Shown: in pieces, positions 3,463 through 62,373 of the stretch | Layout: each line of letters opens with the position of its first letter | Position numbering within the stretch: position 1 is the stretch's first letter | Assembly (NCBI GenBank): GCA_030694935.1 | Contig: JAUYUA010000092.1 | Location: 108,345-172,344 of the forward strand | Source: Lutibacter sp. | Lineage (GTDB): Bacteria > Bacteroidota > Bacteroidia > Flavobacteriales > Flavobacteriaceae | Reading direction: 5' to 3' | Length of the DNA stretch: 64,000 nucleotides | Translations under genes and position numbers: made by a program | Notes under the pieces: model-generated | Database searches by the model: none | Told to the model about the DNA's origin: nothing | Seen by the model: the letters and a program-made list of their open reading frames with translations, nothing else

Positions 3463-6400
3463 ATGAAAAAGCACTTCATAGCATTAGCCATTTGTTTACT
3501 TACCGGAATTTTTTATGGTTATGGACAACAAGACTGTTCTAATGCATTGCCCATATGCTCCGACGCCAATTCTGGCGGTGTTGTGAATGGTTTTGGCTAT
3601 GATGATTTTTTTGGCAGCAGTGTTTCAGGCTGTTTAAGAAATGGTTTGGGAGTCACCACAATAGAAACAAATTCTTATTGGTTTCGCTTTAAATTGGCTG
3701 CCGGCGGACAATTTGGATTCAATATTACACCAAATAATTTAAGTGAAGACTGGGATTTTGCGGTTTATGGCCCAAATACCGCTTGTGGCGCTTTAGGGGC
3801 GCCGATTGCCTGTAATTACAGTAAAGCTTCGCCAACCGGGTACACGGGCGTTGGTCTTGACCCTGTTACCAATACCCAAACCGAAGCTTATGATTCCTGG
3901 ATGAATGTAAACGCAGGTGACGAATATGTGATATTAATCAATCAATATTCAGGAAACAATTCCGGATTTTCCATCAATTGGAAAGGTGCCGTAATCACAA
4001 ATAATGCAGCGTATTTGGACTGCTCAATTTTGGTGAATTTGGGTCCCGACAGAAATTTTTGTGTTGGGCAAAATACCCAATTAAATGCCAAAACTTTTGG
4101 GCCTTCAATAAGTTATGAATGGAAGTACATGAATACTGTAACTGGTTTGTTTGTGCCGTTCTCTCCTGCAAAAACAGGAGAGGCAATTTTTGTAAATACA
4201 ACGGGAACTTATCAGGTGACTGTTACAGACAACACAACGGGAATTGCAAAGTCCGATGATATTTTGGTTACTTTTCATGCGATTCCAACCGCCGGAAATC
4301 CAATAGATATTGTGCTCTGTGACACAAACGGCGATGGTGTTGAGACTTTCAATTTAGCGTCTAACTCTACAGCAATTTTGAATGGACAAACAGGGATGAC
4401 CGTAACGTATCATGAATTTCAAACTTTTGCACAAGTTGGTGCCGCTCCAATAATCAGCCCTGATGCTTATGTTAGTGGCGGAAAAACAATCTGGGCCCGA
4501 ATTCAAAATGATGCGAATACAAATTGTTTTGAAGTTGTTTCTTTTAATATTTCAGCAGCGCCGCCACCAATAGCAAATAAACCGCCAGATTTAAAGGCCT
4601 GTGACGATGATAATGACGGATTTATGATTTTTAATCTTGACCAACAAACGCCAATAATTTTAAATGGCTCGGCTAATATTGTTACTTATTATGATGATGT
4701 AACTAAAGCAAATGACAGGAAAGGCTGGATTCTTAATTCAAATGCTTATCCATCAAAAACAGCAACAATCTGGGTAAGGGTTGAACCGAGCGTAAATTCA
4801 GCATGCTATGCAATAACGACATTCAACCTAGAAGTTTTTGAAAAAGCTAAAGCAAATCCAACCACCAACATTCTGCAATGTGATTTCGACAATGATGGTT
4901 TGTATCAATTCGATCTAAGAACCAAAGATGCTGAAATTTTAGGTTCCCAAAGTTCATCAACCTTTGAAATTAATTATTTCGCCACGCAAGCCAATGCCAA
5001 TAATAACATCAATGTTTTGCCTAATCTATATACGAATGTTACGCCTTATGCCGAAGAACGGATTTATGCGCGGATCCACAACAAGGGATTTGTTGATTGT
5101 TACCAAACCACCAGTTTTACTTTACAGGTTCTTGATACGGCATATCCCGCCGCCGCTGCAAATATTCCCAATTTATCCTATTGTGATGATGCGTCAGACG
5201 GCAACGACACCAATGGTTTTTATCAATTTAATTTAACCGAACGTGGAAGTGTTATTTTGAACGGACAATCACCCTATGTTTTTGAAGTAAATTATTACCG
5301 AGATGCTGCATATATGAACAAAATTTTAAACCCGACTGCTTTTACAAACAGTGTAGCCAACTTGCAAACCATTTATGTTCGGGTAATTAATAAAACCACT
5401 AACAATGTTACTTGTTACGCGGATACTTCTTTTTTGATTGAAGTTAAACCATTGCCAATTGCAATGACAATACCTTATGAATTGGCACAATGCGATGAAG
5501 ACGGAAATCCGGATGGCGTAACCAATTTTAACCTTTCTGAAGCGGATTTCTTTGTGACATTAGGAAACACCAACCTAAATGTTAGCTATCATTTGTCCGC
5601 AATAAATGCAGCTTCAGGAATAAATGCAGTCAATAAATCATCTTTTTCAAACGGTGTTAGTCCAACTGTTTTTGCAAGAGTTGTTGCAACAAATGGATGT
5701 TACAGAATAGTGCAGGTAAATTTAACGGTTACAATCACTTCATTTCCGCCAACATATAGCCGTGAAATAATATTTTGCGACGATGATGCCACCATTGACG
5801 GTTTGCACGAATTTAATTTGGCGAAAGTCACTTCAGAAATAATTTCCCAATTCACCAGCCCAAATTTGAGGGTTGGTTATTATAGAAATCAGGCAGATGC
5901 ACTTTTGGAAACTAATATTATAAGTCCGGCAAACGCCTATTTAAGTGAAGTTCCATATAGCCAAACCATTTGGGTGCGCGTTGAAAGTGCCATTAACGGC
6001 AATTGTTTTGGCATTGCGCCAGTGCTAAAATTAACCGTAAATCCGAGACCTCAATTTGAGCTTGATGAAACAGGAATTGTTTGTTTAAACGATTTGCCTA
6101 AAACAATCTCTATCTATAATCCGCTCGGAACTTATACTTATGAATGGACAAATGCTGCAGGTGACGTCATAAGTGAACAACCTTTTGTGGATATTTTTGA
6201 AGCAGGTGTTTATACTGTGATTGCAACTTCAAATTTGGGTTGCGTCTCTTTTCCGAAGCAAATCACCATGACAGAATCTATTATTGCCGATATTTCTTCG
6301 GAAGACATTCAAGTTGCTGACAATTCGGGCAATAATTCCATCACCATAAATAATGCCGGCCAAAATTTGGGCATTGGCAATTATGAATTTTCGCTGGATG

Positions 6401-6830: not shown

Positions 6831-9329
6831 TTATTTGTCAAGGCTCAAATTTCTCAACCGCAAAGCATTTGCAATCACCGATACAGAGCTGAAACTCATC
6901 GCCAAAGCGGCAATAATAGGCGACAATAACAATCCGAATACAGGGAATAAAACGCCTGCCGCAATGGGTACGCCCAATACATTGTACGCAAATGAGAAAA
7001 ACAGATTTTGTTTGATGTTTTTCATCACGGCGTGACTTAAATTTTTTGCTTTTACAATGCCTTGTAAATCGCCTTTTACCAAGGTAATTGCAGCACTTTC
7101 AATGGCAACATCGGTTCCTGTTCCCATCGCAATTCCCACATTTGATTGGGCAAGTGCGGGCGCATCATTGATGCCATCACCGGCCATAGCCACAATTTTT
7201 CCTTCGGCTTGCAGATTTTTAATAAATTTCAATTTGTCTTCAGGTAAAAAACCTGCTTTAAAATTGGTTAAATGCAACGCGTCGGCAACCGCTTTGGCGG
7301 TATTTTCATTGTCGCCCGTGATCATTATGACTTCAATTCCTTGCTCCATCAAATTTTTAATGGCGGCTGCACTGGTTTTTTTAATGGCATCGGTGATACT
7401 CACATAACCCAAGGCTTTTTGATCAACAGCAATATACGAAACTGTTTTTCCCAACTTTTGTTCGGCTAAAATTTGAGCTTCTAAATCTTTTGGGATCACT
7501 GCTTTTATTTTTTCCATCAGCTTTTTGTTACCCAAAGCCACTTTGTTTTTGGCAACAGTGCCAATAACGCCCATTCCTGCCACCGCTTCAAAATCATCAA
7601 CTTTAGAAAGTTTTGATTTGTTTTCTTTGGCATAATTTACCACGGCTTGCGCCAATGGATGTTCGCTATATTGGTTTAAGGAAGCAATTTGATGCAATAA
7701 ATCTGCTGAATCTCCTTCCAAAGTAACCACTTTTTCAACAGAAGGTTTTCCTTCTGTAAGCGTCCCTGTTTTATCGGTTATTAAAACATTCACCTTATTC
7801 ATAGTTTCTAGCGCTTCGGCATTTTTGATTAAAATTCCGCTTTGGGCGCCTTTACCAACACCAACCATCACGGACATAGGTGTGGCCAATCCCAAAGCGC
7901 ACGGACAAGCGATAATCAATACCGCCACGGCATTCACAAAAGCATAAACCATTGCAGGTTCAGGTCCGAAATATGCCCAAACAACAAAGGTTATGATGGA
8001 AACTCCCACAACTATTGGCACAAAATATTTAGAAATGGTATCTGCCAATTTTTGGATGGGCGCTCTTGACCTGCTGGCGTCGCTTACCATTTTTATAATT
8101 TGTGACAACAAGGTTTCCGACCCCACGCGTTCCGCTTTCATCACAAATGATTTTGTGCCGTTTATGGTGCCTGAGCTTACTTTGTCGCCCACGGTTTTAT
8201 CAACAGGAATAGGTTCTCCCGAAATCATAGATTCATCAATGCTGCTGCTTCCTTCTTCAATGATGCCATCAACAGGAATTTTTTCACCCGGTTTTACGCG
8301 CAATAAATCATCTTTTTTGATGGAATGAATGGAAACAATTTTATCAACGCCATCAACAACTAAAGTGGCTTCCGAAGGCGCCAGTTTTAGCAATTCTTTA
8401 ATAGCGCCGCTGGTTTTGCTGTGCGCTCGGGCTTCCAGCAATTGGCCCAACAACACCAACGTTAAAATAACCGCCGTTGCTTCGAAATACAAACTGACGC
8501 TTCCCATATGTTTAAATTCCTGCGGAAAAACGGAAGGGAATAAAAGTCCGGCAATGCTGAACAAAAATGCGGCTGCCGTACCTATTCCCACCAAAGTGAA
8601 CATATTCAAATTCCAGGTAATGATCGATTTCCAGGCACGCACGTAAAACATCCAACAGGTATAAAAAACAATAGGAAGCGTTAAAACAAACTGTGACCAA
8701 TCCCAATAAATTTGGGGGAATAGTTTGGACAGCGGATTTGTGGGAAGGTGCATGGACATTGAAATAATAAATACAGGAACCGCAAAAATGAGCGATATCT
8801 TCATTTTTTTGAGCAACTTCAAATAAGTTTTGTCTTCTGCGCTTTCCGTTGGTTCCATCGGCACCAAATCCATTCCGCAAATAGGGCAGGAACCAGGTTC
8901 GTCTTTCACAATTTCGGGGTGCATCGGACAAGTATATTGTGTTGCGACAATCGCTTTTGGCTGTTCAATTAAATCCATCCCGCAAACCGGGCAATCGCCT
9001 GGTTTGTTGTACGTTTTTTCACCTTCACAGTGCATCGGACAGTAAAATACGCCGTTTCCGTCTTTTATTGGCTTTATGGCTACAGGTTTTTCTGTTTTTT
9101 CGTTGGCGGTATTTGGATCAAAATCTGTAATGGTATAATGCAATCCTGCTTTTAGAAATTCTTGCTGAAATGTTTCTGTTGAAATATGGTTTTCCATGTC
9201 AACTTCGAATTTGCCTTCCTCCAATTTAACAGTCGCTTTTGACACACCTTTTATATTTTTTAAGGTATCTTCAGCATTGGTTCTGCAACCATTACAGGTC
9301 ATTCCGGTTATTTTATAGGTGTGTTTCAT
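6831..9329 (-). CDS. copA: Copper/silver-translocating P1B-type ATPase with N-terminal HMA domain plus two CxxH..CPxCGM heavy-metal-binding modules
   Basis: GMTCNGC, CPC ([13 protein letters not shown]), [23 protein letters not shown] and M-x-x-SS transmembrane motifs. Confidence 0.93.
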
Positions 9330-12759: not shown

Positions 12760-15700
12760 TGGTTATTTTTTTTAATTAACGACTCTCTCCAGGATGCCTG
12801 TAAAATGGGCACCACAAAAATGGTCATGATTTGAATAATCATTCCGCCAAATGCCGGAATTGCCATAGGAACCATAATGTCCGAACCTTTTCCTGTTGAA
12901 GTTAATACAGGAATCAATGCAATAATGGTTACCGCAGTGGTCATCATCGCAGGTCGAACGCGTTTTTTTCCTGCATCAATAACTGCAAGTCTCACTTCAG
13001 CAACTGTTTTTGGATCTCTTTCTTCAAAAACCTGATGAATATAAGTTCCCATCAGTACGCCATCATCCGTTGCAATTCCAAACAGGGCGATAAATCCAAC
13101 CCAAACGGCAACACTTAAATTAATGGTGTGCATTTGAAATAAATCGCGCATATTGATTCCGGAAACGTTGAAATTCATAAACCAATCTTGTCCCCAAAGC
13201 CAAATCATAATAAATCCGCCGGCAAAGGCAACAAAAACACCCGAAAAATGAATGGCAGATGCGGTAATTGTTTTAAATTGAAAGAACAGCAACATAAAAA
13301 TAATCAACAAACAAATCGGAATTACGATGGAAAGTCGTTTTACTGCCCGAACCTGATTTTCAAAACTACCGGAGAATTTATAGCTTACGCCGGCCGGAAC
13401 AACCAAAGCGCCGCTTTTAATTTTTGAATCGATAATTTCCTGTGCGTCTTCAACCACATCAACTTCAGCATTTCCTTCTTTTTTATCGAACAATACATAT
13501 CCCACTAAAAAAGTATCTTCGCTTTTAATCATTTGCGGGCCTTGCAAATACTCAATTGTCACCAATTCGCCCAAAGGTACTTGCGCCATCGTTGGGGTTG
13601 GAATTAAAATTTTCTTCAATTTTTCGGGATCATCACGCAATTCACGCGGATACCTGACACGAACGGAAAATCGTTCGCGACCCTCAACAGTTGTGGTAAT
13701 TGGCATTCCGCCAATAGCAGTTTCAATGGCTTGTTGGGTTTGTTCAATGCTTAACCCAAAACGCGCAATTTTATCTCTGTCGATATTGATATTCAAATAG
13801 GGTTTTCCAACAATTCTGTCTGCAAAAACGGCATCTGCTTTTACGGAAGGAACTTCTTTTAAAATGTTTTCAAGCTGCACGCCAAATTCCTGAATGGTGT
13901 TTAAATTGGGCCCATAAACTTTTATGCCCATCGGCGCTCGCATTCCTGTTTGGAGCATCACCAATCGGGTTTCAATAGGCTGTAATTTTGGCGCTGAGGT
14001 GATTCCCGGCAAAGCGGTCACTTTGATAATTTCATTCCAGATATCATTGGGCGTTTTAATTTGTTTTCTCCAATTTCTGAAATTATCACCATCATCATCC
14101 TGAATTAAATCTATTTTGGTAACGCCTTTTACAATGGCATCTTCATTGGAAAGTGAATCGCCCGATTTTAGAATAAAACGATCTTTATTGTCCGTTTTAA
14201 AAGTTTCTCTATGTCCTTTTTCATTTAATATGAATTCAGATTTGTAGCCAATCACATTCTCATACATCGAGATTGGCGCTGGATCCAAAGCGGTTTCTGC
14301 CCTTCCAAGTTTGCCCACGGCAACTTCAACTTCGGGTATGTTAATAACTGCCATATCCAACAATTGCAAGGTTTTGGTGGTTTCTTCAATCCCTGCGTGC
14401 GGCATAGAAGTTGGCATCAATAAAAAACTTCCTTCATTTAACGAAGGCATAAACTCTTTTCCAATTCCAGGGAATTTATGATGCATATAGGAATACACAG
14501 AAGTTGTTTTTAGGTTGAGGCCTATTTTATCAAATCCATTTGCTGCCCAGCCAAAAACACCGTTAAAACCAATCCAGATGAATAATCCAAAAAGGATGGT
14601 AAATAGCGGCAGCATTAAAAATTTTCGCTTGTTATTCAAGCACCAAACCAGAATTTCCTCATAATAATAAATCACAGAAATAATCATTGATAAAACCGAA
14701 GCAATGATAATGATGACCATTAGATAATTTGAAAACAAACTGTTTTGATGGCCAAGCGGCGCCCACGATTTTGTAAGAATTAACGTTGTAAATAGCAGGG
14801 CGATGCCAATGGTGATTAAATTTGAGTGTTTACCAATGTATTTTGGATAAATTGGCGCCAATATGTTTTTTAGTCCGATGAAGGTCAGCACCAAAGGAAT
14901 CAAGGTTGAAAACACAATGGCCAATACAATTCCGGAAACAATTAAGGTGATATTCCAAAATTTACTTATTTTTTGTTTTGAAAATTTAAAGCCAAAAATT
15001 AAATAGATAATCGTTGGCAAAAACACAACGCCAATTAAAAAGGAGGCTCCCAATGCAAAAGTCTTGGTGAAAGCCAGTGGCCTAAATAGTTTTCCTTCGG
15101 CATTTTCCATAAAAAATACCGGCAAGAAACTTACAATTGTGGTTGCAATGCCAACGGTTATTGCAGGCGCAATTTCTGTAGTTGCCTCATAAATTACATG
15201 GATAAGCTGTTTTCCTTTTTTGCCGATATTTTCTGGCATTTCAAAAAACCGGATGTTGTTTTCAACCAAAACAATGCCAACATCCACCATCACGCCAATG
15301 GCAATGGCAATTCCGGAAAGCGCCACCACATTGGCGTCAACACCGGCATAACGCATAATAATGAAAGTCATAATTACGGCCAAAGGCAACAAACTTGCAA
15401 TAATTACTGAGGCTCTTAAATTGAATAACAGAATGATGATTACAATAATACTGATGATAATTTCTTCTGTTAAGGCACTTTCTAAAGTTCCTATGGTTTC
15501 TTGGATTAGGCCAGTTCTGTCGTAAAACGGAACAATTGTTAACTGGCTCACCGTGCCGTCGGCCAAGGTTTTTTTAGGCAATCCGGTTGAAATTTCTTTG
15601 ATTTTAGTTTTTACATTGTTGATGACTTCCAGCGGATTTGAACCATAACGGGCAACCACAACACCGCCAACAACTTCGGCACCTTCTTTATCGAGTATGC

Positions 15701-30599: not shown

Positions 30600-30620
30600 A
30601 AACTTGCATTTCTATAAAAT

Positions 30621-30660
30621 CAAAAAACGCCTTGAAGAATTTCTTAAAGGCGTTTTTTTT
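30621..30660 (+). terminator. Rho-independent terminator of tig (copy 1 of a duplicated ~55-80 bp segment)
   Basis: AAAAAACGCCTTGAAGAA-T-TTCTTAAAGGCGTTTTTTTT. A near-identical copy lies at 46291-46328. Confidence 0.8.
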
Positions 30661-30827
30661 ATGGGTTTTATCGAAATCTCAACAAAATAAACTCCCAAGA
30701 ATTAAATTCAATTGTGCACAATAAAAATGGAAACAAAAAAAACTGTATTTTAACCGCTAACTAATTGGGTTCATTTTAATAGTAGGATTTTTTAAACCAG
30801 AAATCAATCTAAATACATAACAAATTA

Positions 30828-31592
30828 ATGAAAGGAATCATGTCTTCACAAATTGAAATCAACAAACTAACCGCAATCATAGTTGATGATGAACTTCACG
30901 GCAGGGAAAATCTAAAACTGATTATTCAAAATTACTGTCCGGAGATTGAAGTTATAGGAAGTGCAGACGATGTGGTTTCGGCAATAGCTTTGGTGAAAAA
31001 TCATTTGCCCGACGTTGTTTTTCTAGATATTAATATGCCGGTACTTGATGGATTTGATTTTCTTGACGAATTTGAAGATCGAAAATTTATGGTTGTTTTT
31101 GTAAGTGCTCACGACGAATTTGGAATTAATGCGGTAAAAGTTAGGGCAGAAGATTATCTTTTAAAACCGATAAATATCAAAGAACTCAAATTGTGCGTTA
31201 AAAAACTGCTGTGTATAAATGGTAAAAAAAACAGTTTCAAACCTGTTTTAGAAAATAATAAATTGGTTATTTCTGCTTCCCGTGGATTTAATATTCTCAA
31301 TATCGACGATATTTTGCGGTTGGAAGCTGATGGCTGTTATACCACAATTGTCACTAAAGACAAAAAAAACTCTGTAATATCACGCACTTTAAAAGATTTC
31401 GAAGAATCATTGCCAAAAGAATATTTTTTTCGGATTCACAAATCGCACCTGATTAATTTGAAATATATCAAGGACTATTCAAACTTTAGCGGAAACTTTG
31501 TCACCATGACCGACGGCAGTAAAGTTGAAATATCGCGCCGAAAAACACCAGAATTTATCCTGCGCGTAAAAACATTTCTAAATACTGTTTAG
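30828..31592 (+). CDS. LytTR-family two-component response regulator (REC + LytTR DNA-binding domain)
   Basis: IVDDE...DVVFLDINMP receiver motifs. C-terminal LRLEADGCYTTI...FFRIHKSHLINLKYI LytTR signature. Confidence 0.9.
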   Translation: MKGIMSSQIEINKLTAIIVDDELHGRENLKLIIQNYCPEIEVIGSADDVVSAIALVKNHLPDVVFLDINMPVLDGFDFLDEFEDRKFMVVFVSAHDEFGINAVKVRAEDYLLKPINIKELKLCVKKLLCINGKKNSFKPVLENNKLVISASRGFNILNIDDILRLEADGCYTTIVTKDKKNSVISRTLKDFEESLPKEYFFRIHKSHLINLKYIKDYSNFSGNFVTMTDGSKVEISRRKTPEFILRVKTFLNTV

Positions 31593-31594
31593 AG

Positions 31595-34594
31595 ATGCTT
31601 AATAAAAATATAATTTTTGCCGCATTTTTTCTCTTTTGTTTTCCAAATATCCATTCACAAACCCCATCTTATTATCATTATACTTCGTCCGACGGATTGG
31701 CATCTTCCACCGTTTACGATATTATTCAAGATAATGACGGATTTATGTGGTTTGCCACCGCCAACGGAATAAGTAAGTTTGATGGCAATCACTTTGCTAC
31801 ATTCCGAACCAAAGACGGTTTAAATTCCAACTCAATTATTTCTCTTTTGGAAGGAAGAAAAGGCGAATTATACATCGGTAATTTTGAAAAGGGAATTAAT
31901 ATTTTAAAAAATGGTAAAATTGAAAATTATTGCAGCGTAATTGACGGCAAAAGTTTGGTGATTTCTTACTTAATATTTGACACTTCAAAAAAAAATGAAC
32001 AGAAAATTATTGCATATAATGGTTGGGGTGATATCAATTTAATCAGTGAAACCGCATCGGGTAAACTGAGCACAAAAATTATTAAGGCCTTTCCCGTTTA
32101 CATCAATAAATTAGAAAAACTGGCAAATGGTGATTTAATGGCTTTAACTACAACGGGTTTGTATGATTTTAAAGTTGAATCACTTTCAAAATTGAACATC
32201 AAAAGTTTGCCCGAAACTTCAGTTTTTTGTCTCGCCAACGGCAATGACGGGAGTTACTATATCGGCACAAAAGGAACAATTTACCAATTAAAAAACAAGG
32301 CTATAATTGGAACATATAAAATAGATTTAGCGAGCAACAATGAGGTTACCGCTATTTTAAGCGATAAAAATAATAATATTTGGTTTTCAAACAGAAATTC
32401 GGGTTTTTATATGATTCCAAACGGTTCAAACAAAATAATAGATATTGGAAGTAAATTAGACCTACAAAATACGCTGGTAAACAAATATTTTGAAGATAAG
32501 GAAGGAAATATTTGGATCAGCACTTTTGGAAAAGGCGTTTATTGCATTAACAATCTTTACCTAAAAAGTTATAATGAAAATGACGGATTGCATAATAATA
32601 ACGTTTATGCTATTGCTAAAGTAAGTTCGGGAAAATTATTATTGGGTACTTTTAATGGCGTAAGTATTTTAGAAAACGGAAAATTCGACCAGATCAAAAA
32701 TAAAAATGATAAAACTTTATCGGAATATATTTATAACATTAAAAATTTAAATAATGAATTTTATGTTTGTGGGTCAGTTGTAAAAAACGACACATCCACT
32801 ATTTCTTATAAAGACATAAAATTGCATTTGTTTGATGGACTTTCATTTTGCAAATTAAGCAATGGATTGTACTTGTTTGGAGGAAGAACAAATTACATAA
32901 GAGTGCAAAATAAGTTTAATGATGGTAAAAACCAAGCATCAGAAGTGTTTATTTTTGGTGAAGAGCGCAGCGCAAACCGAATCAATCAAATTTTTGAGGA
33001 TTCAGAAAAAACACTTTGGATTGGCACCGGACATGGTTTGTGCAAAGCATCAGTTTTGCTCGATAAAGCAGGGAAACTAACTTTAAAGAAAACCTTTTTT
33101 AAATCCAATTCAATTTTAAATTCGAAAATAAATGCCATTATTCAAGATAATGACCACAACATTTGGGTAGCCGGAGAAAAAGGGATTGTTCGTTATAATC
33201 TAAAAAACAATTCCATTACAGACTATGAAAATATTGGGGATCAGGATTTATCGTCGTCTACTTCAGTTGTTTCCGACAAAAAAAACAGAATTTGGGTTGG
33301 AAATATGAAGGGTCTTTATTTGGTTGATGGCAACACAATTAAATATTTTAATAAGCAAACCGGCCTTCCGTCGGATGAAGTTTATTCACTTTTTTATGAT
33401 CGGGGAAAAAACCAGTTAGTGATTGGTTCAAGCGCCGGGATCACGTTTTTGGATATTGGTTTGTATGACAATGCTATTTTACCGCAACTACAGGTTAAAA
33501 TTATGGGCGTAAAGGCCGGGGATTCAATTTACGCCAACTATAACCATCTGGTTTTTGAGCCTGAACAGCGAAATGTTTCCATTAATTTTAAAGCGCTAAA
33601 CTTTTCTTCTCCGGGCTCTGTGAGATATCAGTATAAATTAGATGACAGCAAATGGAAAGAAACCCACGATGATGTTCTTAATTTTCTTTCTCTTAAAAAT
33701 GGAAAATATAACCTCCAAATTAGGGCAAAATCCCAAAATGGAAATTGGAGCAATCCGGCTCAGATTTCCTTTGAAGTGAAACCTCGTTTTACAGAAACCG
33801 TTTGGTTTAAATTTTTGATGCTGTTAATTGTTGCATTGGTTTCGAGTTTCTTGGTGGCTTGGCAAGCCAGAATTCAACAGCGTAAAGCACGTAAAAAACT
33901 AAAATTGAATCAGAGAATTAATGACCTTAAACATCAAGCTTTGTCGGCCATGATGAACCCGCATTTTATTTTTAACTCCCTTAATTCGGTACAATATCTT
34001 ATCAACAGCAACAGAAATGAAGAAGCCAACGATTATATAGCGATTATGGCTAAATTGATACGGAAAAATTTGGAAACCGCCGGAAGCGGATTTATACTTT
34101 TATCTGAAGAAATCAGCCGACTGAAACTTTATTTGAATTTGGAGAAACTCAGATTTCAGGACAGGTTTTCTTTTGAGATTATTACAGGAAACGATATAGA
34201 TTCAAATGCTTTAATGATTCCGAATATGATTCTCCAGCCATTTGTTGAAAACGCGCTGTGGCACGGCATTCTTAATTCGGGAATAAAAGGTTTGCTGACC
34301 ATCTCTTTTTCTTTTGAAAATATAGAAATTGATGGTGAAATTTGTAAATCACTACTGATTAAAGTTACCGATAATGGCATTGGAATTATTGAAGCAAGGA
34401 AACATAAAAAAGTTGACCATATTTCAAAAGGAATCCAGATTATTGAGGAACGCCTCCGTTTGTTGAGCGAAAAAATGGAATTGCCCCAACCAATTATGAT
34501 TGACGATTTAAGCAATCAAAATAATAATGCACACGGCACCGAGGTTATCATTTCACTTCCGCCTCCGCTCTATCAAATAATTGTCAAGGAATAA
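31595..34594 (+). CDS. Sensor histidine kinase: periplasmic two-component-regulator beta-propeller repeats + Y_Y_Y domain, TM, LytS-type His_kinase + HATPase
   Basis: Repeated DGFMWFAT / GNIWIST / LWIGTGHGL propeller blades, VRYQYKLD (Y_Y_Y), TM, NPHFIFNSLNSVQYLI, PFVENALWHG. Starts 2 nt after the response-regulator stop. Confidence 0.88.
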   Translation: MLNKNIIFAAFFLFCFPNIHSQTPSYYHYTSSDGLASSTVYDIIQDNDGFMWFATANGISKFDGNHFATFRTKDGLNSNSIISLLEGRKGELYIGNFEKGINILKNGKIENYCSVIDGKSLVISYLIFDTSKKNEQKIIAYNGWGDINLISETASGKLSTKIIKAFPVYINKLEKLANGDLMALTTTGLYDFKVESLSKLNIKSLPETSVFCLANGNDGSYYIGTKGTIYQLKNKAIIGTYKIDLASNNEVTAILSDKNNNIWFSNRNSGFYMIPNGSNKIIDIGSKLDLQNTLVNKYFEDKEGNIWISTFGKGVYCINNLYLKSYNENDGLHNNNVYAIAKVSSGKLLLGTFNGVSILENGKFDQIKNKNDKTLSEYIYNIKNLNNEFYVCGSVVKNDTSTISYKDIKLHLFDGLSFCKLSNGLYLFGGRTNYIRVQNKFNDGKNQASEVFIFGEERSANRINQIFEDSEKTLWIGTGHGLCKASVLLDKAGKLTLKKTFFKSNSILNSKINAIIQDNDHNIWVAGEKGIVRYNLKNNSITDYENIGDQDLSSSTSVVSDKKNRIWVGNMKGLYLVDGNTIKYFNKQTGLPSDEVYSLFYDRGKNQLVIGSSAGITFLDIGLYDNAILPQLQVKIMGVKAGDSIYANYNHLVFEPEQRNVSINFKALNFSSPGSVRYQYKLDDSKWKETHDDVLNFLSLKNGKYNLQIRAKSQNGNWSNPAQISFEVKPRFTETVWFKFLMLLIVALVSSFLVAWQARIQQRKARKKLKLNQRINDLKHQALSAMMNPHFIFNSLNSVQYLINSNRNEEANDYIAIMAKLIRKNLETAGSGFILLSEEISRLKLYLNLEKLRFQDRFSFEIITGNDIDSNALMIPNMILQPFVENALWHGILNSGIKGLLTISFSFENIEIDGEICKSLLIKVTDNGIGIIEARKHKKVDHISKGIQIIEERLRLLSEKMELPQPIMIDDLSNQNNNAHGTEVIISLPPPLYQIIVKE

Positions 34595-34611
34595 ATTTAC
34601 TTTTTACACTT

Positions 34612-34662
34612 ACCGTTAAATTAGGAAAACCTACCGTTAGTTTATTAATACCTACCGCACGC
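34612..34662 (+). promoter_or_regulatory. Three phased LytTR-type direct repeats (ACCGTTAAA, ACCGTTAGT, degenerate ACCGCACGC; 21-bp start-to-start)
   Basis: Box 2 matches [TA][AC][CA]GTTN[AG][TG] 9/9 and box 1 matches 8/9, with 12-bp spacers. The array sits directly upstream of -33/-7 elements of the downstream operon. Confidence 0.6.
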
Positions 34663-34671
34663 TTGTTAGCT

Positions 34672-34703
34672 ATTGTGATAGCCGATTCTTGTGTTTAGAT
34701 TTG
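34672..34703 (+). promoter_or_regulatory. Putative promoter of the giant-protein operon (-33 ATTG at 34672-34675, -7 TAGATTTG at 34696-34703)
   Basis: TAnnTTTG match with a 20-bp gap to a TTG element. Lies 21 nt upstream of the ATG at 34724. Confidence 0.45.
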
Positions 34704-34723
34704 ATACAAAAGCTAAAGCTCCC

Positions 34724-34975
34724 ATGTGGAATTTTCTAAAAAACTTACAGAATTTATTTACAAAGAAGCAATCTGTTTCCACACCACTTTTAATTATCAA
34801 AAAAAGTGCTGATGATGCTAATGTAAAAGAATACAACTCAATTGAAGAAGCCATTGCCGATCTTGAAAACGACCCAAATGTTCCCGCAGAAAAAATAAAA
34901 AAGCTAAAATCGTCCGTTAAATTGTTAAAGGACAAGTCTTCCATAAAAATCAGAAATGGTGAAATCATAAAATAA
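34724..34975 (+). CDS. Small hypothetical protein (83 aa, no signal peptide), first ORF of the operon
   Basis: ATG at 34724 is preferred over GTG at 34691, which overlaps the -7 box. Charged K/E-rich sequence. Ends 13 nt before the next gene. Confidence 0.45.
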   Translation: MWNFLKNLQNLFTKKQSVSTPLLIIKKSADDANVKEYNSIEEAIADLENDPNVPAEKIKKLKSSVKLLKDKSSIKIRNGEIIK

Positions 34976-34987
34976 AATACAACAGTT

Positions 34988-37900
34988 ATGAAGAAACATC
35001 TTGTGCTCCTATTATTGGCAATTACTTTTCAGGGTTTTGCGCAAACCAATCTTATTACCGGTATCAACATTTCTCTGCCTGCAAACCCAAGTGGAAATAT
35101 TGCTGAATGGTCTAAATCTATGCCACCGTTCATGATTTCTGCACAAACCAGAATGGAAAACGGAAAAGTGTCCCCAATGGTGACGGAAAGCCGAATTTTG
35201 GTTTCTATAAAAGGCAATGGTGCCGTTTGCGGAAACTATACTGTTGACAATGCTCCGTCAAGTAATTTTAATTCACCCGCTAAAGTATGGTCGGGCGAAG
35301 CGGCGCTTAACTTATTGGGAAAAACTTGCGTTTTAAAACCTGGGAATTATGAACTTTGTGTAAAGTTCTATGGCTATGGCGCTGTTGGCCAGGTTTTAAT
35401 CGGTGAAAGCTGTAAATCATTTACCATAAAAGAAACTGAGCATAAATCGTATCAGCCACCTCAGCCTTTAACGCCCGTAAATGGACTTTCCTATACAACT
35501 GGTGACTTCGCGCAACCACAGTTGTTTCGTTGGACTCCTATAGTACCAAAACCTCAAGAGCCGGTAACTTATAGGTTAAAAGTTTGGCAACTGACTGAAG
35601 GCCAAACAGGAACGCAAGCGATGAAGGCAAACCAGCCTATTATTACCAAAGATGTTGAAAATATGACGCAGGTTGTGATTAATAATATTATAGATGGTCC
35701 TTGCAAACCACCTTACCTATGCGATTTTGTATGGAATGTTCAAGCATTAAACAAAGAAGGGAATCCAATAGGTGAAAATAAAGGAATAAGCAGCCCATTT
35801 CAGTTTGCGGTAAATGAAGCAGCGCCAAACGTTAATAAATCAATGCCTGTTAATGAAGAGGAGGAAGTAGTGGTTCCAACAGGAAATATTGCGGTTAACG
35901 ACACCATTTATGCCGGTTATAATGGAGAATTTGCCATTATTACAACACAAGTTAGCGGCACCAATAAATTTTCAGGTAAAGGAACAGCCTTCATAAATTG
36001 GCTAAAGGCACGAGTGAGCGTTAAATTTGACAGCATTACTGTTGATACCAATAAGAAATTGCTCACAGGAAAAATTTTGGCTGAAATTCATGCTACAGCG
36101 CCAGTTTATCCGCAAGATTGGGCTTTAGAAATTGTAGCCAACAATCCTTGGGCGAATAGTGCGGCTTCAAGTATGGTTACTTGGGTTGAAAGCCAAACCA
36201 ATCAAACAATTCCTTATAATAATTTAACAGAAGTAACGACTCCGGTGAAATTGCCTCTTGGACTTAATTTTCCAAACGGGGATCAATTGGCGATCACCGA
36301 ATTGGTTTTTAGAAACAATAAATCTGAATTCAATTTGGTAACTTCAAAAACTACGCCGCAAGACTGGGGAAATCCTGTTCAATTGGTAGGTTTTATTGCT
36401 AAAAATATAGAATTTCATCCCAGCAATATTAAAATGCCTCCCAATAGAATAGAACTTGTTGAAGATGTTACCATTATTGCAAATCCTAAAATTAATTTCA
36501 CCTTTAAAAAACCCACAAATTCAAATACAGGTTGTTTTGTAGAATGGGGTGAAAATGGATTTTCGCAATTCGGAATCGAAATACATTCTGAGTTTACCAG
36601 AGATTGGTTATTGCCTTCTCCTGATGATGGAATTTCCAAAACCAAGGCAAAACTATTTGCCTTAGGCACTGCTTGGAATGATTTGGTTTTAACTGGTACT
36701 TTGGATAAATCAGAAATAGTTTCCGCACAAGGAATGACAGTATTGGCCGATAGTTTGTCTTATGATATGTCCGATGTTTTAAATCCGCCAAGCATCACCT
36801 TTCCAGAAAATTATGATGGAGAAACATCCAACTTATTCAGGGGTTTTTATATGAAAGAATTGGTTGTGGAAATGCCCACAACCTGGCAAACCAATTCGGG
36901 CGGCAAACCTCAAATTTCAGTTCAAAATATGATTATTGACAATACAGGTATTACGCTATTTGCGGAAGCTACCAATGTTGTTCAGTTTCCAAATGCAAAC
37001 GTAGCCGATTTGGTTGCGAGCATTGATACGGTTCACGTAGAAATTGAATCGAGTTCGCTTGTTGAAGCAAGTGTTAAAGGCCGAATTGGATTGCCGGTAA
37101 GTAAAGCGGATTCTATTCAAAATCCATTAAAATATATCGCACTATTCAATAACGCGCAATTGCCTTCTCAAACAAGCTATTTTCAATTAACCATTGAACC
37201 GACAGGTCCAATTTATGCAAATTTGTTAAAAGGCGTGATGACACTTGCCCAAACCTCAAATATTGTTGCGTATGTTGATAAAAACAAAAAAACATTTCAA
37301 ACAATGCTCAACGGAAATTTTGTTTGGAACAATGTGAAATTAGGGCCGGTGAAAAATGTCAATATGAACATAGGATTTCAAGGAATTGCCATGAATTATG
37401 ACTCAAGTTTGGCAAGTAATAAATTCACCTTCAATGCGGGCGCATGGTCATTTGCAAGTCCTCAAAAATTCCTGGCAAATTTCCCGGTAACCATAGACAA
37501 TATCGGATTTAAGCAATTGCCAACCACAGGCAGTCAAATGCTTCATGGAAAATTAAATTTTGATGTCATTTTTAACTTGTCAACAGATGTAGGAGGGCAA
37601 TCTAAATTGGCCGTTGAATTGGCAATTGAAGACAATCAAAATGCTTCAGGATTGGGAAAATTTAAACCAAAATATATTGGAACCAGTATTTCCGACATCA
37701 GTGTTTATGCAAATTTACCAGCCGTTTCTATTGATGGAACCATTCAATTCAGAAATGATGATCCCGTTTTTGGAAATGGTTTCAAGGGAACACTTCAAGC
37801 AACTTTTAAAGCACCAAAAGTGAGTATTTCAGCTTTGGCCGAATTTGGAAACACCAGTTATCTTCATACATCAACTTACAGATATTGGCGGGTTGAAGCA

Positions 37901-43847: not shown

Positions 43848-44735
43848 ATGAAAAAATATAATTTAATAACAGCCCTTGGATTTTTTCTGATTGTTCAGAT
43901 GGCTCAGTCACAAATTACCGTAAACTTGGCTTTAAACAGCAGGCCGCAACCTTGGTTGTCGCAATGGGGAAATCCGATAAACGGACAAATGATTATCACC
44001 TATATGAAAGGACCTGTGCAAGGCGAGGCCCAAGTTAAACTCAGGACAACTTTATCAGATGAAAGCGGAAGCATTGTTGGCGCGTCAAATATTAATGCAT
44101 CTCGTATTTATACTTTAAGAGAAGGCGTAAACCTATTTACGATGGCCGATGCTTTGCAATTGCAAAATTTAGTTTTATCGGGAAAAGTGCAAAATACGCT
44201 TCAACGCACCGGGCGATTGGCTGCCGGCCAATACCAATTAAAAGTTGAAGTGGTAAATGTTTCTGGCGAGGCGGTTTTTGCGCGCCAGACTCATCCGTTT
44301 TTTATCACTTCTTACCAATTGCCTAAATTAATGGTTCCTGCCGACGGCGCACAATTGGACGCACTTGTTGCCCAAAGTTTGATTACTTTTCGTTGGACTG
44401 GATTGGTGCCGAATACCTCCGAACTTCCTACTTATCGTGTTCAGGTTTTTGAAATTTTGCCCGGGCAAACACCGATGCAGGCATTTCGCGGAAACTTTCC
44501 CATTTTAGATGAACCCGCTTTGCGAGGCACAACACAATATATTTGGAGAACCAGTCTGCCGATGTTAGATGATACCGCCAACCAAAAATTTATATGGACA
44601 GTGCAAACACTTGATATGGAAGGGCACCCAGTTCCAAGTAATGATATGAATAATCAGGGAAGAAGTGAACCAGCCGTTTTCACCATCATAAACCAAATGG
44701 GCGCTGGCAATAAGGACAAAATGAACGAAGATTAA
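43848..44735 (+). CDS. Secreted hypothetical protein, paralog of the N-terminal ~275 aa of the 1,619-aa protein
   Basis: Signal peptide. Collinear matches include YQxP, FRWT, VP, TYRxxV, GQTxxQA and WxVQxLxxEGxP at equivalent positions (Y156 vs Y155). Confidence 0.65.
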   Translation: MKKYNLITALGFFLIVQMAQSQITVNLALNSRPQPWLSQWGNPINGQMIITYMKGPVQGEAQVKLRTTLSDESGSIVGASNINASRIYTLREGVNLFTMADALQLQNLVLSGKVQNTLQRTGRLAAGQYQLKVEVVNVSGEAVFARQTHPFFITSYQLPKLMVPADGAQLDALVAQSLITFRWTGLVPNTSELPTYRVQVFEILPGQTPMQAFRGNFPILDEPALRGTTQYIWRTSLPMLDDTANQKFIWTVQTLDMEGHPVPSNDMNNQGRSEPAVFTIINQMGAGNKDKMNED

Positions 44736-44745
44736 ATAAAAGCGC

Positions 44746-46266
44746 ATGAAAAAAATTATCAGTATCATCGTTTTTGGAATTTTAGCGCTACAACTAGCAG
44801 CCCAAGTTCCGCAAGAAAGAAAGCCTTCAACCTTGGCGTTTCATATTTTTTATAACGATTTTAATACCGCCCAGCAAATCAAAACAAGCTCTTTAAATAA
44901 TGTGCTTAAAAATCACCTTTGGAGTAAAATTGGCGATATGCAAACGGGATTCGGAATTAATTACTTAAAGGGAATTCGCAATAAAATTGATTTTGTTGCC
45001 ACAATTGATGGCAGTTGGACAGATTATCTTTATGACGATGGCACATTTTACGGAAGCAATGAATTTTTATTGGATGCCAATGCCGCTCTGAATTTTAAAA
45101 TGTTGACCGATCGACATACGCTTGTGCCATATATTTCAAGTGGTGTTGGAGTTTCGTTATATCAGGGCAAAACGGGTTTTTATGTTCCTGTTGGCGCCGG
45201 ATTGCAATTCAATGTATTTGATGAAGCTTTTATTTTTACAAATATTCAGTACCGTTACGCGTTGACTTCCTCAGTTAATGACCATTTTAATTATACAATT
45301 GGCATCGCTGTTAGCATCGGTAAAAATAAAGTAAAACCTGCGGAAATAGTTGAACTGGTGAAAAAGGAAATATCGAACAAGAATATAATGGTTTCTGTTT
45401 ATGATGAAGCTACAAGTTTGCCTTTATCCAATGTGGAAGTTACTCTTAGCGGACCAGACAATAAAAAACTAAATGTATCTACAAATGCTGTCGGAAAAGC
45501 CGTTTTCACTTCAATAGTCCCTTCAGATTACAGCGTTTCTGGTTTGTTAAATCGTATCAATTCTTCAACCCAAAATATTGAAAAAAATGCTTTTGAGACC
45601 GAAGATAATCAAATCAATATCAGCTTAACCCACAACGATCCGCAGTTTACATTGCAGGGTGTTGTAATCAATAAAACCCAAAATATTCCTGAAGGAAATG
45701 TGGTTATAACAATCAACAACAACACAAATCAAAACATCACTAGCGTACAAAGCAATTCAGGAAGCGGAATTTTTCAATCCCAACTTGAAGCTGAAAGCGA
45801 TTTTACGCTTGTTGGAAAAAAAGCCAATTATATCTCTAACATTGTTAAAGTAAGCACCAAAGGTTTAAACAGAAGTGTAACGCTTTTTGTAAATTTAGAA
45901 TTGGCTATTGAAGAAGCAAAAGTTGGACAAAGTATCGTGTTGAATAATATTTATTTTGAAGTTGGAAAAACAACTGTGAACACTTCTTTTTCATCGGATT
46001 TGGATAAATTAGTGCAATTTTTTAATGACAATACCGAAACAAAGCTTGAGATTCAAGGTCATACAGACAATACAGGAAGTTTGAAACTTAACAATAAACT
46101 AAGTCAGGCCCGTGCAAACAGTATCGTTGATTATTTGGTAAAACAGGGAATTGACAGCCGCCGAATTTCGGCAAAAGGTTTTGGATCGTCGTTTCCAATA
46201 GCCGACAATACAACAGAAAAAGGCAGGGCCAAAAACAGACGCGTGGTCATAAAAGTAATACAATAA
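44746..46266 (+). CDS. OmpA-family protein: N-terminal small beta-barrel, carboxypeptidase-regulatory-like Ig domains, C-terminal OmpA peptidoglycan-binding domain
   Basis: C-terminal NNIYFEVGKTTV...LEIQGHTDNTGS...NNKLSQARANSIVDYL...GRAKNRRVV. Middle segment VSVYDEATSLPLSNVEVTLSG. Confidence 0.85.
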   Translation: MKKIISIIVFGILALQLAAQVPQERKPSTLAFHIFYNDFNTAQQIKTSSLNNVLKNHLWSKIGDMQTGFGINYLKGIRNKIDFVATIDGSWTDYLYDDGTFYGSNEFLLDANAALNFKMLTDRHTLVPYISSGVGVSLYQGKTGFYVPVGAGLQFNVFDEAFIFTNIQYRYALTSSVNDHFNYTIGIAVSIGKNKVKPAEIVELVKKEISNKNIMVSVYDEATSLPLSNVEVTLSGPDNKKLNVSTNAVGKAVFTSIVPSDYSVSGLLNRINSSTQNIEKNAFETEDNQINISLTHNDPQFTLQGVVINKTQNIPEGNVVITINNNTNQNITSVQSNSGSGIFQSQLEAESDFTLVGKKANYISNIVKVSTKGLNRSVTLFVNLELAIEEAKVGQSIVLNNIYFEVGKTTVNTSFSSDLDKLVQFFNDNTETKLEIQGHTDNTGSLKLNNKLSQARANSIVDYLVKQGIDSRRISAKGFGSSFPIADNTTEKGRAKNRRVVIKVIQ

Positions 46267-61818: not shown

Positions 61819-62373
61819 ATGAAGAACATTTTAAAAATAACAATAGCCTTGGCTTTTTTATTCACCCTTTCATCTTGTTGGTTGGATAAAACAAAGCCAA
61901 ATTACCAATATATGCCAGATATGTATAAATCGGTAGGCTACGATACCTATTCGGTAAATCCAAATTTTGGTGATGGAAGAACTTCTCAGCCACCTGTCGA
62001 AGGAACTATTTCTCGCGGAAAAGTGCCTTACGATTATCCAAATACACAAGAAGGCTATGATGCCGCTCTATTAAATCTGAAAAATCCATTGGAAGTAAAT
62101 GAGGCAAATTTGGAAAACGGTAAAGCAATGTATACCATTTATTGCATTTCTTGTCACGGCGCTTCAGGTGCTGGCGATGGCGAATTGGTAAAAAGAGACA
62201 AATTTTTAGGCGTTCCTAATTACAAGGACAGGCCAATTACGGAAGGAAGTATTTACCACGTAATCATGCACGGAAGAAACTTAATGGGTTCACATTCAGG
62301 TCAGTTAACAGCTAAAGAACGTTGGCAAGTGACCATGTATGTGCAACAGCTTAGAAACGAACTATTAAAATAA
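61819..62373 (+). CDS. actE: Alternative complex III subunit ActE (monohaem cytochrome c lipoprotein)
   Basis: Lipobox LSSC and a single CISCHG haem motif. Confidence 0.85.
   Translation: MKNILKITIALAFLFTLSSCWLDKTKPNYQYMPDMYKSVGYDTYSVNPNFGDGRTSQPPVEGTISRGKVPYDYPNTQEGYDAALLNLKNPLEVNEANLENGKAMYTIYCISCHGASGAGDGELVKRDKFLGVPNYKDRPITEGSIYHVIMHGRNLMGSHSGQLTAKERWQVTMYVQQLRNELLK

Follow-up and report, generated by a model that had tools for sequence, protein, structure and literature searches.

A phased three-box repeat array upstream of an orphan envelope operon in Lutibacter as a probable LytTR operator

Introduction

The sites bound by LytTR-type regulators are direct repeats of 9-11 bp with spacers of 11-13 bp, and they have no consensus in common (PMC4847170). 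The repeats most often lie 12 bp apart and are preferentially found 10 bp upstream of the -35 element (PMC6193735). AgrA (agr P2/P3), ComE, PlnC and BlpR use pairs of imperfect repeats of about 9 bp with 12-13 bp spacers and activate a weak promoter located just downstream (PMC4227749, PMC2714321). In E. coli, YpdB of the YpdA/YpdB (PyrS/PyrR) pair binds a GGCATTTCAT direct repeat at yhjX (PMC4847170). Here we analyse a 64,000-nucleotide stretch of a Lutibacter sp. genome (Flavobacteriaceae; GenBank assembly GCA_030694935.1, contig JAUYUA010000092.1, positions 108,345 to 172,344 of the forward strand), hereafter the window, which carries an array of three in-phase direct repeats between a sensor histidine kinase gene and an orphan envelope operon. 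The array is very probably the activating operator of the cognate LytTR regulator encoded two genes upstream. LytTR operators are a known kind of element and the array is ordinary in kind; by analogy, it would work as BtsR and AgrA sites do at their promoters.

The closest analogue is the BtsS/BtsR (YehU/YehT) system of E. coli acting at the btsT (yjiY) promoter. The BtsR motif, attributed to Kraxenberger et al. 2012, is reportedly ACC[G/A]CT[C/T]A with a 13-bp spacer. Read directly from the E. coli genome (NC_000913.3), the btsT promoter carries ACCGCTTA-N13-ACCACTCA, and both boxes fit this motif; in boxes 1 and 2 of the window, position 5 is T, not C. The btsT promoter (L081, locus 5400-5460, minus strand) also has a possible third box, GCCGCTCA, 20 bp upstream, which parallels the three-box layout of the window. 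The two systems share a kinase core of the LytS type (PF06580), a regulator composed of a REC and a LytTR domain, the ACCG core and the 21-bp start-to-start phase of the boxes. They differ in the sensor, which is a periplasmic beta-propeller/Y_Y_Y module in the window kinase and of the 5TM-LytS/GAF type in BtsS, in the target, an orphan envelope operon as opposed to the CstA-family pyruvate transporter BtsT, and in the promoter, which in the window is of the Bacteroidetes -33/-7 type. BtsR is the best NCBIfam match of the window regulator at 132.2 bits, with an equivalog cut-off of 246; given this score and a LytTR-domain identity of 17%, orthology was rejected.

Other described systems share the operator geometry in different settings. 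LytTR Regulatory Systems such as HdrRM/BrsRM likewise have repeats 12 bp apart, with a strong preference for a 10-bp gap to the -35 element (PMC6193735). In these systems a stand-alone LytTR protein is paired with a membrane inhibitor and their operon is autoregulated, whereas the window encodes a classical kinase/regulator pair and a downstream operon. As in the AgrA, ComE, PlnC and BlpR circuits, a small gene comes first behind the operator. Unlike these circuits, the window has three boxes instead of two, a kinase with a large periplasmic propeller in place of a polytopic HPK10 peptide receptor, and a first gene product of 83 residues that is highly conserved and lacks an obvious leader. 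Its operon is without ABC, peptidase or exporter genes in Pfam and NCBIfam searches and, unlike in AgrA-type circuits, no autoregulatory site was found before the window regulator gene. A literature search on propeller/Y_Y_Y plus LytTR systems in Bacteroidota found nothing relevant and no characterised operator.

Results

The array consists of three direct repeats with an exact 21-bp phase. It lies within the 129-bp gap between the kinase stop codon (34592-34594) and the ATG of the first open reading frame (ORF) at 34724, with 112 bp from the start of box 1 to this start codon. Direct reading places the TACCG cores at 34611, 34632 and 34653, corresponding to start-to-start distances of 21 and 21 bp, and the 9-mers beginning at 34612, 34633 and 34654 are each followed by a 12-bp spacer. 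A repeat search independently recovered the 21-bp period. The location in the gap, the 9-mer coordinates and the exact spacing had been given in a first-pass annotation of the window and are all confirmed; the cTACCG context it gave for box 1 is wrong, the sequence being cTTACCG. Comparison with relatives defines a repeat unit of 13 bp, TACCG-N5-TT[A/G], which is longer than the 9-mer. Only 0.03 TACCG-N16-TACCG pairs are expected per window while three are observed, two of them in the array, and the phased array is therefore not a product of chance. The third match (61931-61956, minus strand) lies inside an ORF (61819-62373) and has a low position-matrix score; as a candidate second operator it was judged to be a chance match on these two grounds. 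No second operator was found elsewhere in the 64-kb window, the best other pair scoring 16 bits versus 40.

The half-site consensus for LytTR proteins is said to be [TA][AC][CA]GTTN[AG][TG] (attributed to Nikolskaya and Galperin 2002). Box 2 matches it at 9/9 and box 1 at 8/9 positions, the scores assigned at first pass, and box 3 at 5/8 specified positions. This consensus is only weakly defining because LytTR sites do not share one. The initial description as a textbook LytTR operator is slightly generous in view of the number of boxes, three in phase versus the usual two, and of the poor consensus fit of box 3.

A predicted promoter of the Bacteroidetes type follows the array at a fixed distance. 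Bacteroidetes primary-sigma promoters possess a -33 TTTG and a -7 TAnnTTTG element (PMC2483708, PMC7366714), with the -33 motif not being detectable in every case (PMC7366714). In the window, the -7 box TAGATTTG is a full match, in agreement with its first-pass assignment, and is separated by a 20-nt spacer from the TTG of a sub-optimal -33-like element, ATTG, which matches TTTG at 3/4 positions. Exactly 10 bp lie between the end of the box 3 9-mer (34662) and the start of this TTG (34673), a gap previously estimated at about 10 bp. All three boxes are located upstream of the -33 element, clear of both the core promoter and the start region. With its 12-bp spacers and 10-bp gap, the architecture matches that of published LytTR sites (PMC4847170, PMC6193735).

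All genome loci that share the gene order of the window have retained the array in the same register relative to the promoter. We fetched 80 genome loci via an alignment of the 1619-residue protein family encoded downstream of the array and sorted them by tblastn with the window proteins, named below by their length or, for the 83- and 1619-residue proteins, as small and large. Class A loci have the order regulator, kinase, small, large and include Lutibacter as well as several metagenome-assembled genomes (MAGs) labelled Ignavibacteriota or Melioribacteraceae. Class B loci have the order 577, 295, large, 704, kinase, regulator, and class C loci, which include Chitinophagaceae and Sphingobacteriaceae, the order regulator, kinase, large. 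All 13 class A loci contain the three-box array with 21-bp phase upstream of the small gene and in register with -33/-7, for a total of 18 instances that align ungapped from box 1 to the start codon. With one duplicate dropped, the remaining 17 instances have a mean identity of 53%, and their information peaks are the three CC(G) cores, the TTG at 34673-75 and the TT at 34666. An independent matrix was built solely from those class A loci that are not Lutibacter, most of them MAGs with Ignavibacteriota or Melioribacteraceae labels. It gives the window array 42.8 bits (13.4 for box 1 alone), compared with 10.2 for the second-ranking distinct site of the 64 kb and a maximum of 17.1 over 100 simulated windows.

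Metagenome loci extend this pattern. Through the small protein we fetched 80 such loci, 73 of which have enough upstream sequence. The triple-array score exceeds 17.1 in 68 of the 73, and in 54 loci all three boxes score above 4 bits. Phased ACCGTT-like repeats, whose occurrence at orthologous loci the first-pass annotation had proposed as a check, are thus present at these 68 loci and at every class A genome locus. In most metagenome loci, box 1 and the start codon are 111±2 bp apart. From 52 non-redundant arrays we obtained the ungapped consensus ctTACCGtTtAaTTa..aataC.TACCGTT..tTTA..aa.a..tACCgt...cTtgTTagcTATTG.a..a.c......Tt.t.t.TAg.TT, in which box 2 reads C.TACCGTT..tTTA, box 3 retains the ACCG core together with a downstream cTtgTTagc, TATTG is invariant and the -7 position is kept as TAg.TT. 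That this consensus runs ungapped through -33 and -7 indicates that operator and promoter elements form one rigid unit. Upstream sequence extends for at least 700 bp in 58 metagenome loci; among these, the kinase ends within 200 bp of the small-gene start in 29 and lies farther upstream in 7. Adjacency of array and kinase is common but not obligatory.

Relatives of the system use different half-sites depending on the clade of their regulator. Clustering of linked regulators by LytTR domain yielded four groups. The class A clade is accompanied by TACCG three times and the class C clade by a conserved TTTACCG(T/C)AAACTCATTCA directly after the kinase stop; in L038, two ACTCATTCA copies occur at 21 bp. 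L049 and L053, despite a class B gene order, show TACCGATAACT in two copies at 20 bp. TACCG-type half-sites accompany clades with at least 35% LytTR-domain identity, while a distant clade (25-32% identity) contains loci with TTCATC-N15-TT(T)CATC repeats. The latter type has 38 matches in 2.9 Mb, and 6 of them fall within the interval 100-180 bp before the first operon gene, compared with an expectation of about 0.14. As judged from these loci, half-site type tracks the regulator clade and not gene order, and this co-variation connects the boxes with the cognate LytTR protein. A generic search upstream of class B and C operons, covering 10-bp direct repeats of whatever sequence with spacings from 12 to 32 bp, gave only a weak excess at 21 bp (12 loci versus typically 5-9); it proved too noisy, mainly because of GC-rich loci, and motif-specific counts were used instead.

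Several individual arrangements were observed in the more distant relatives. TTCATC-N15-TT(T)CATC repeats with 21-bp phase lie 100-180 bp upstream of the 577-residue homologue in L014, L016, L018, L031, L042 and L063. In the Nonlabens loci L028, L035 and L051, an inverted TTTCAT-GGA-ATGAAA arrangement is found instead, and L007 (ca. 7860-7935) carries four tandem 17-bp units (AATGAAACTCAATACTA) that directly precede or overlap the start of the 577-residue homologue. Class B relatives (labelled Saprospiraceae, Nonlabens and similar) resemble the YpdB motif in possessing (C)ATTTCATC-type repeats with 21-bp phase upstream of the first gene. This likeness concerns a paralogous regulator clade and not the operator of the window, and YpdB orthology was rejected in view of low protein identities of 19-28%.

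At three loci the array is found twice, and both copies are equipped with a -33/-7 promoter. One is located between the kinase stop and inserted genes, the other in front of the small gene (positions 8562 and 9625 in L005, 3195 and 7239 in L033, 3972 and 9129 in L046). The inserted genes encode a 299-residue membrane protein in L005, paralogous proteins of about 256 residues in L033 and L046, and a 905-residue repeat protein in L046. Outside the boxes, second copies have diverged from first copies. Duplication of the module before accessory genes is expected of a regulon operator, which argues against a mere relic, and suggests a multi-promoter regulon. In L036, a two-box copy of the array (12866-12900) breaks off behind box 2, directly next to a 170-residue ORF of opposite orientation (12892-13404); it may represent a disrupted operator.

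The genes on both sides of the array encode a LytTR two-component system and a largely undescribed set of envelope proteins (Table 1). Pfam matches bear out the neighbouring LytTR regulator and histidine kinase of the first-pass annotation. The LytTR domain of the regulator (PF04397) spans residues 156-243 and matches PDB entry 3d6w (E=3.5e-6), and the kinase combines a periplasmic two-component-regulator propeller and a Y_Y_Y domain with a LytS/YehU-type His_kinase (PF06580) core. Upstream of the regulator gene (30600-30828), a terminator-like hairpin (aaaacgcc...ggcgtttttttt) is located behind the preceding gene, and a single TTAACCGCTAACTAA box without a phased partner is present at 30753.

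Table 1. Coordinates of the array, its promoter elements and the flanking genes in the window
Feature	Coordinates	Strand	Evidence or details
Box 1	34611-34623	+	13-bp unit TACCGTTAAATTA; first-pass 9-mer ACCGTTAAA (34612-34620)
Box 2	34632-34644	+	13-bp unit TACCGTTAGTTTA; 9-mer ACCGTTAGT (34633-34641); best-conserved of the three
Box 3 (promoter-proximal)	34653-34665	+	13-bp unit TACCGCACGCTTG; 9-mer ACCGCACGC (34654-34662)
-33-like element ATTG (TTG 34673-34675), within conserved gcTATTG	34672-34675	+	information peaks T34673, G34675
-7 box TAGATTTG	34696-34703	+	full match to Bacteroidetes TAnnTTTG
Response regulator, REC + LytTR, 254 residues	30828-31592	+	Pfam Response_reg E=1.4e-20, LytTR E=2.2e-21
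Sensor histidine kinase, 999 residues	31595-34594	+	Pfam Reg_prop 1.2e-38, Y_Y_Y 5e-9, His_kinase 4e-20
Conserved protein of unknown function (small), 83 residues, first gene behind array	34724-34975	+	coding pattern, 473-member family
Secreted protein without known domains (large), 1619 residues	34988-39847	+	no Pfam, NCBIfam or PDB match
Protein with weak FN3-like repeats, 704 residues	39847-41961	+	two weak sub-threshold FN3-type matches
Protein without known domains, candidate outer-membrane, 577 residues	42090-43823	+	signal-peptide-like N-terminus, C-terminal ...YKF
Protein homologous to N-terminal ca. 280 residues of the 1619-residue protein, 295 residues	43848-44735	+	tblastn
OmpA-family protein, 506 residues, last gene of unit	44746-46266	+	Pfam OmpA 1e-22, CarboxypepD_reg

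The operon behind the array begins with the small gene and ends with the OmpA-family gene, the following gene being on the opposite strand. The small ORF is a real gene, as identity to its L034 homologue at codon positions 1/2/3 (0.77/0.86/0.54) follows a coding pattern and the protein belongs to a family of 473 members. It is 60-94% identical across the homologues listed and conserved along its whole length, and no leader is recognisable. Its AlphaFold model has a pLDDT of 73, and a Foldseek search against PDB gave no match at E<1. Apart from the sub-threshold FN3-type matches of the 704-residue protein, none of the first five operon proteins has sequence relatives in Pfam, NCBIfam or PDB, and no transporter domains were detected among the downstream genes in Pfam and NCBIfam searches. 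Homologues of the 1619-residue protein occur across Bacteroidota and in MAGs labelled Ignavibacteriota, with close ones from Lutibacter. By tblastn, the 295-residue protein aligns in many loci with the N-terminal part of the large protein, at 25-33% identity (43848-44735 versus 34988-35830 in the window), indicating that the operon encodes a free-standing copy of this domain. The 577-residue protein is possibly located in the outer membrane, and the 506-residue protein is related to the CHU_0125 and PorE families (NCBIfam).

Between Lutibacter and the MAGs labelled Ignavibacteriota/Melioribacteraceae (L033, L034, L036, L046, L056, L062), the kinase is 51-74%, the small protein 68-73% and the 1619-residue protein 40-45% identical. 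The better conservation of the regulatory genes hints at horizontal exchange of a regulatory cassette, or at mis-binned contigs.

Discussion

The array is best explained as the activating operator of the LytTR regulator encoded next to it. The link between regulator and orphan operon, first proposed from the window alone, is supported by the conserved in-register array and by the co-variation of half-site and regulator clade. Several points weigh against this reading. The LytTR domain is 17% identical to that of BtsR and the half-site likeness to btsT may be convergent, box 3 fits the 2002 9-mer consensus poorly, and three boxes do not fit a simple dimer model. No phased site was found upstream of the regulator gene, so that nothing points to positive autoregulation, a typical property of many LytTR systems. 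The kinase is absent within 2.5 kb upstream of the array in 22 of the 58 metagenome loci. Lastly, many loci are related to each other or come from MAGs with uncertain taxonomic labels, so that the counts overstate the number of independent lineages.

It is improbable that the LytTR regulator binds the boxes as a repressor or with a dual role instead of as a simple activator. Repression by LytTR proteins has a precedent in PlnD, which is reported to repress via the same repeats as the activator PlnC (PMC2714321), and the E. coli record lists BtsR as a dual regulator. However, all boxes lie upstream of the -33 element and leave the core promoter free, and their rigid spacing to -33/-7 over 52 arrays together with the sub-optimal ATTG fits recruitment of polymerase. 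Somewhat less probable still is that another DNA-binding protein, or a structural DNA feature such as a bend or UP-like element, accounts for the array and that its LytTR neighbourhood is coincidental. The AT-rich spacers and the 22 loci lacking a nearby kinase would be in line with this explanation, but the 9+12 direct-repeat geometry is a hallmark of LytTR sites (PMC4847170, PMC6193735) and the half-site type shifts with the clade of the linked LytTR regulator. Moreover, the kinase does precede the array at the 29 loci where it ends close to the small gene and at the 7 where it lies farther upstream, and loci with inserted genes carry a second array directly behind the kinase.

The bracketing of inserted genes by two array copies in L005, L033 and L046, and the truncated copy beside an oppositely oriented ORF in L036, could also be taken to mean that the repeats are relics or attachment sites of recombination or of a mobile element. 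We consider this very unlikely: the copies have diverged outside the boxes and each retains a complete -33/-7 at the same spacing and a co-oriented downstream gene, no integrase, transposase or inverted terminal repeats were seen, and the array is also present without an insertion, for example in the window. Chance repeats, or an RNA element (terminator, attenuator or riboswitch) in a read-through transcript, would be favoured by the AT-rich intergenic context alone and have a negligible probability given the 0.03 pairs expected per window and a conservation pattern of DNA repeats as opposed to base pairing. An RNA element was rejected based on the lack of any Rfam match at E<=1, the lack of a terminator-like hairpin and a folding z-score of +0.26.

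For an activating LytTR operator, the following sequence of events can be proposed. A signal perceived at the periplasmic propeller/Y_Y_Y domain of the kinase would lead to phosphorylation of the regulator, the receiver aspartate probably being the D in VVFLDINMP, and the phosphorylated regulator would occupy the three boxes, probably cooperatively. As 21 bp correspond to two helical turns, the boxes would share one face of the DNA, with the bound sites centred at roughly -50, -71 and -92. The regulator bound at box 3, located about 10 bp ahead of the sub-optimal ATTG, would recruit or stabilise primary-sigma RNA polymerase at TTG-N20-TAGATTTG. The small ORF and the five envelope genes behind it would thereby be switched on from a predicted transcription start about 4-8 nt past the -7 box, at about 34707-34711. 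Here, we infer physical binding, activation over repression, stoichiometry, the transcription start and the nature of the signal.

A more far-reaching joint reading is speculative and, taken as a whole, rather doubtful. Regulator, kinase, operator and small gene might together constitute a portable cassette that is better conserved than its structural genes, was possibly exchanged between Bacteroidota and Ignavibacteriota, and switches on an undescribed cell-surface apparatus comprising the 1619-residue, FN3-repeat and possible outer-membrane proteins, the 295-residue paralogue and the OmpA anchor. The three boxes would then reflect a higher-order, non-dimer LytTR assembly, and the 83-residue protein would be a new accessory or feedback component.

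The value of the array lies in its unusually strong comparative support, its three-box layout, the co-variation data and the handle it provides on an orphan envelope operon. It defines a site for the propeller/Y_Y_Y plus LytTR system, namely TACCG-N5-TTR three times at 21 bp and fixed relative to -33/-7, and the position matrix from 52 non-redundant arrays makes the regulon testable in any genome with this two-component system. The co-variation of regulator clade and half-site (TACCG versus TTCATC) represents a natural data set for the recognition rules of LytTR proteins. The array further offers a handle on how a LytTR activator cooperates with the unusual sigma-A polymerase of Bacteroidetes and on the conditions under which a widespread, unannotated envelope operon of five to six genes is expressed.

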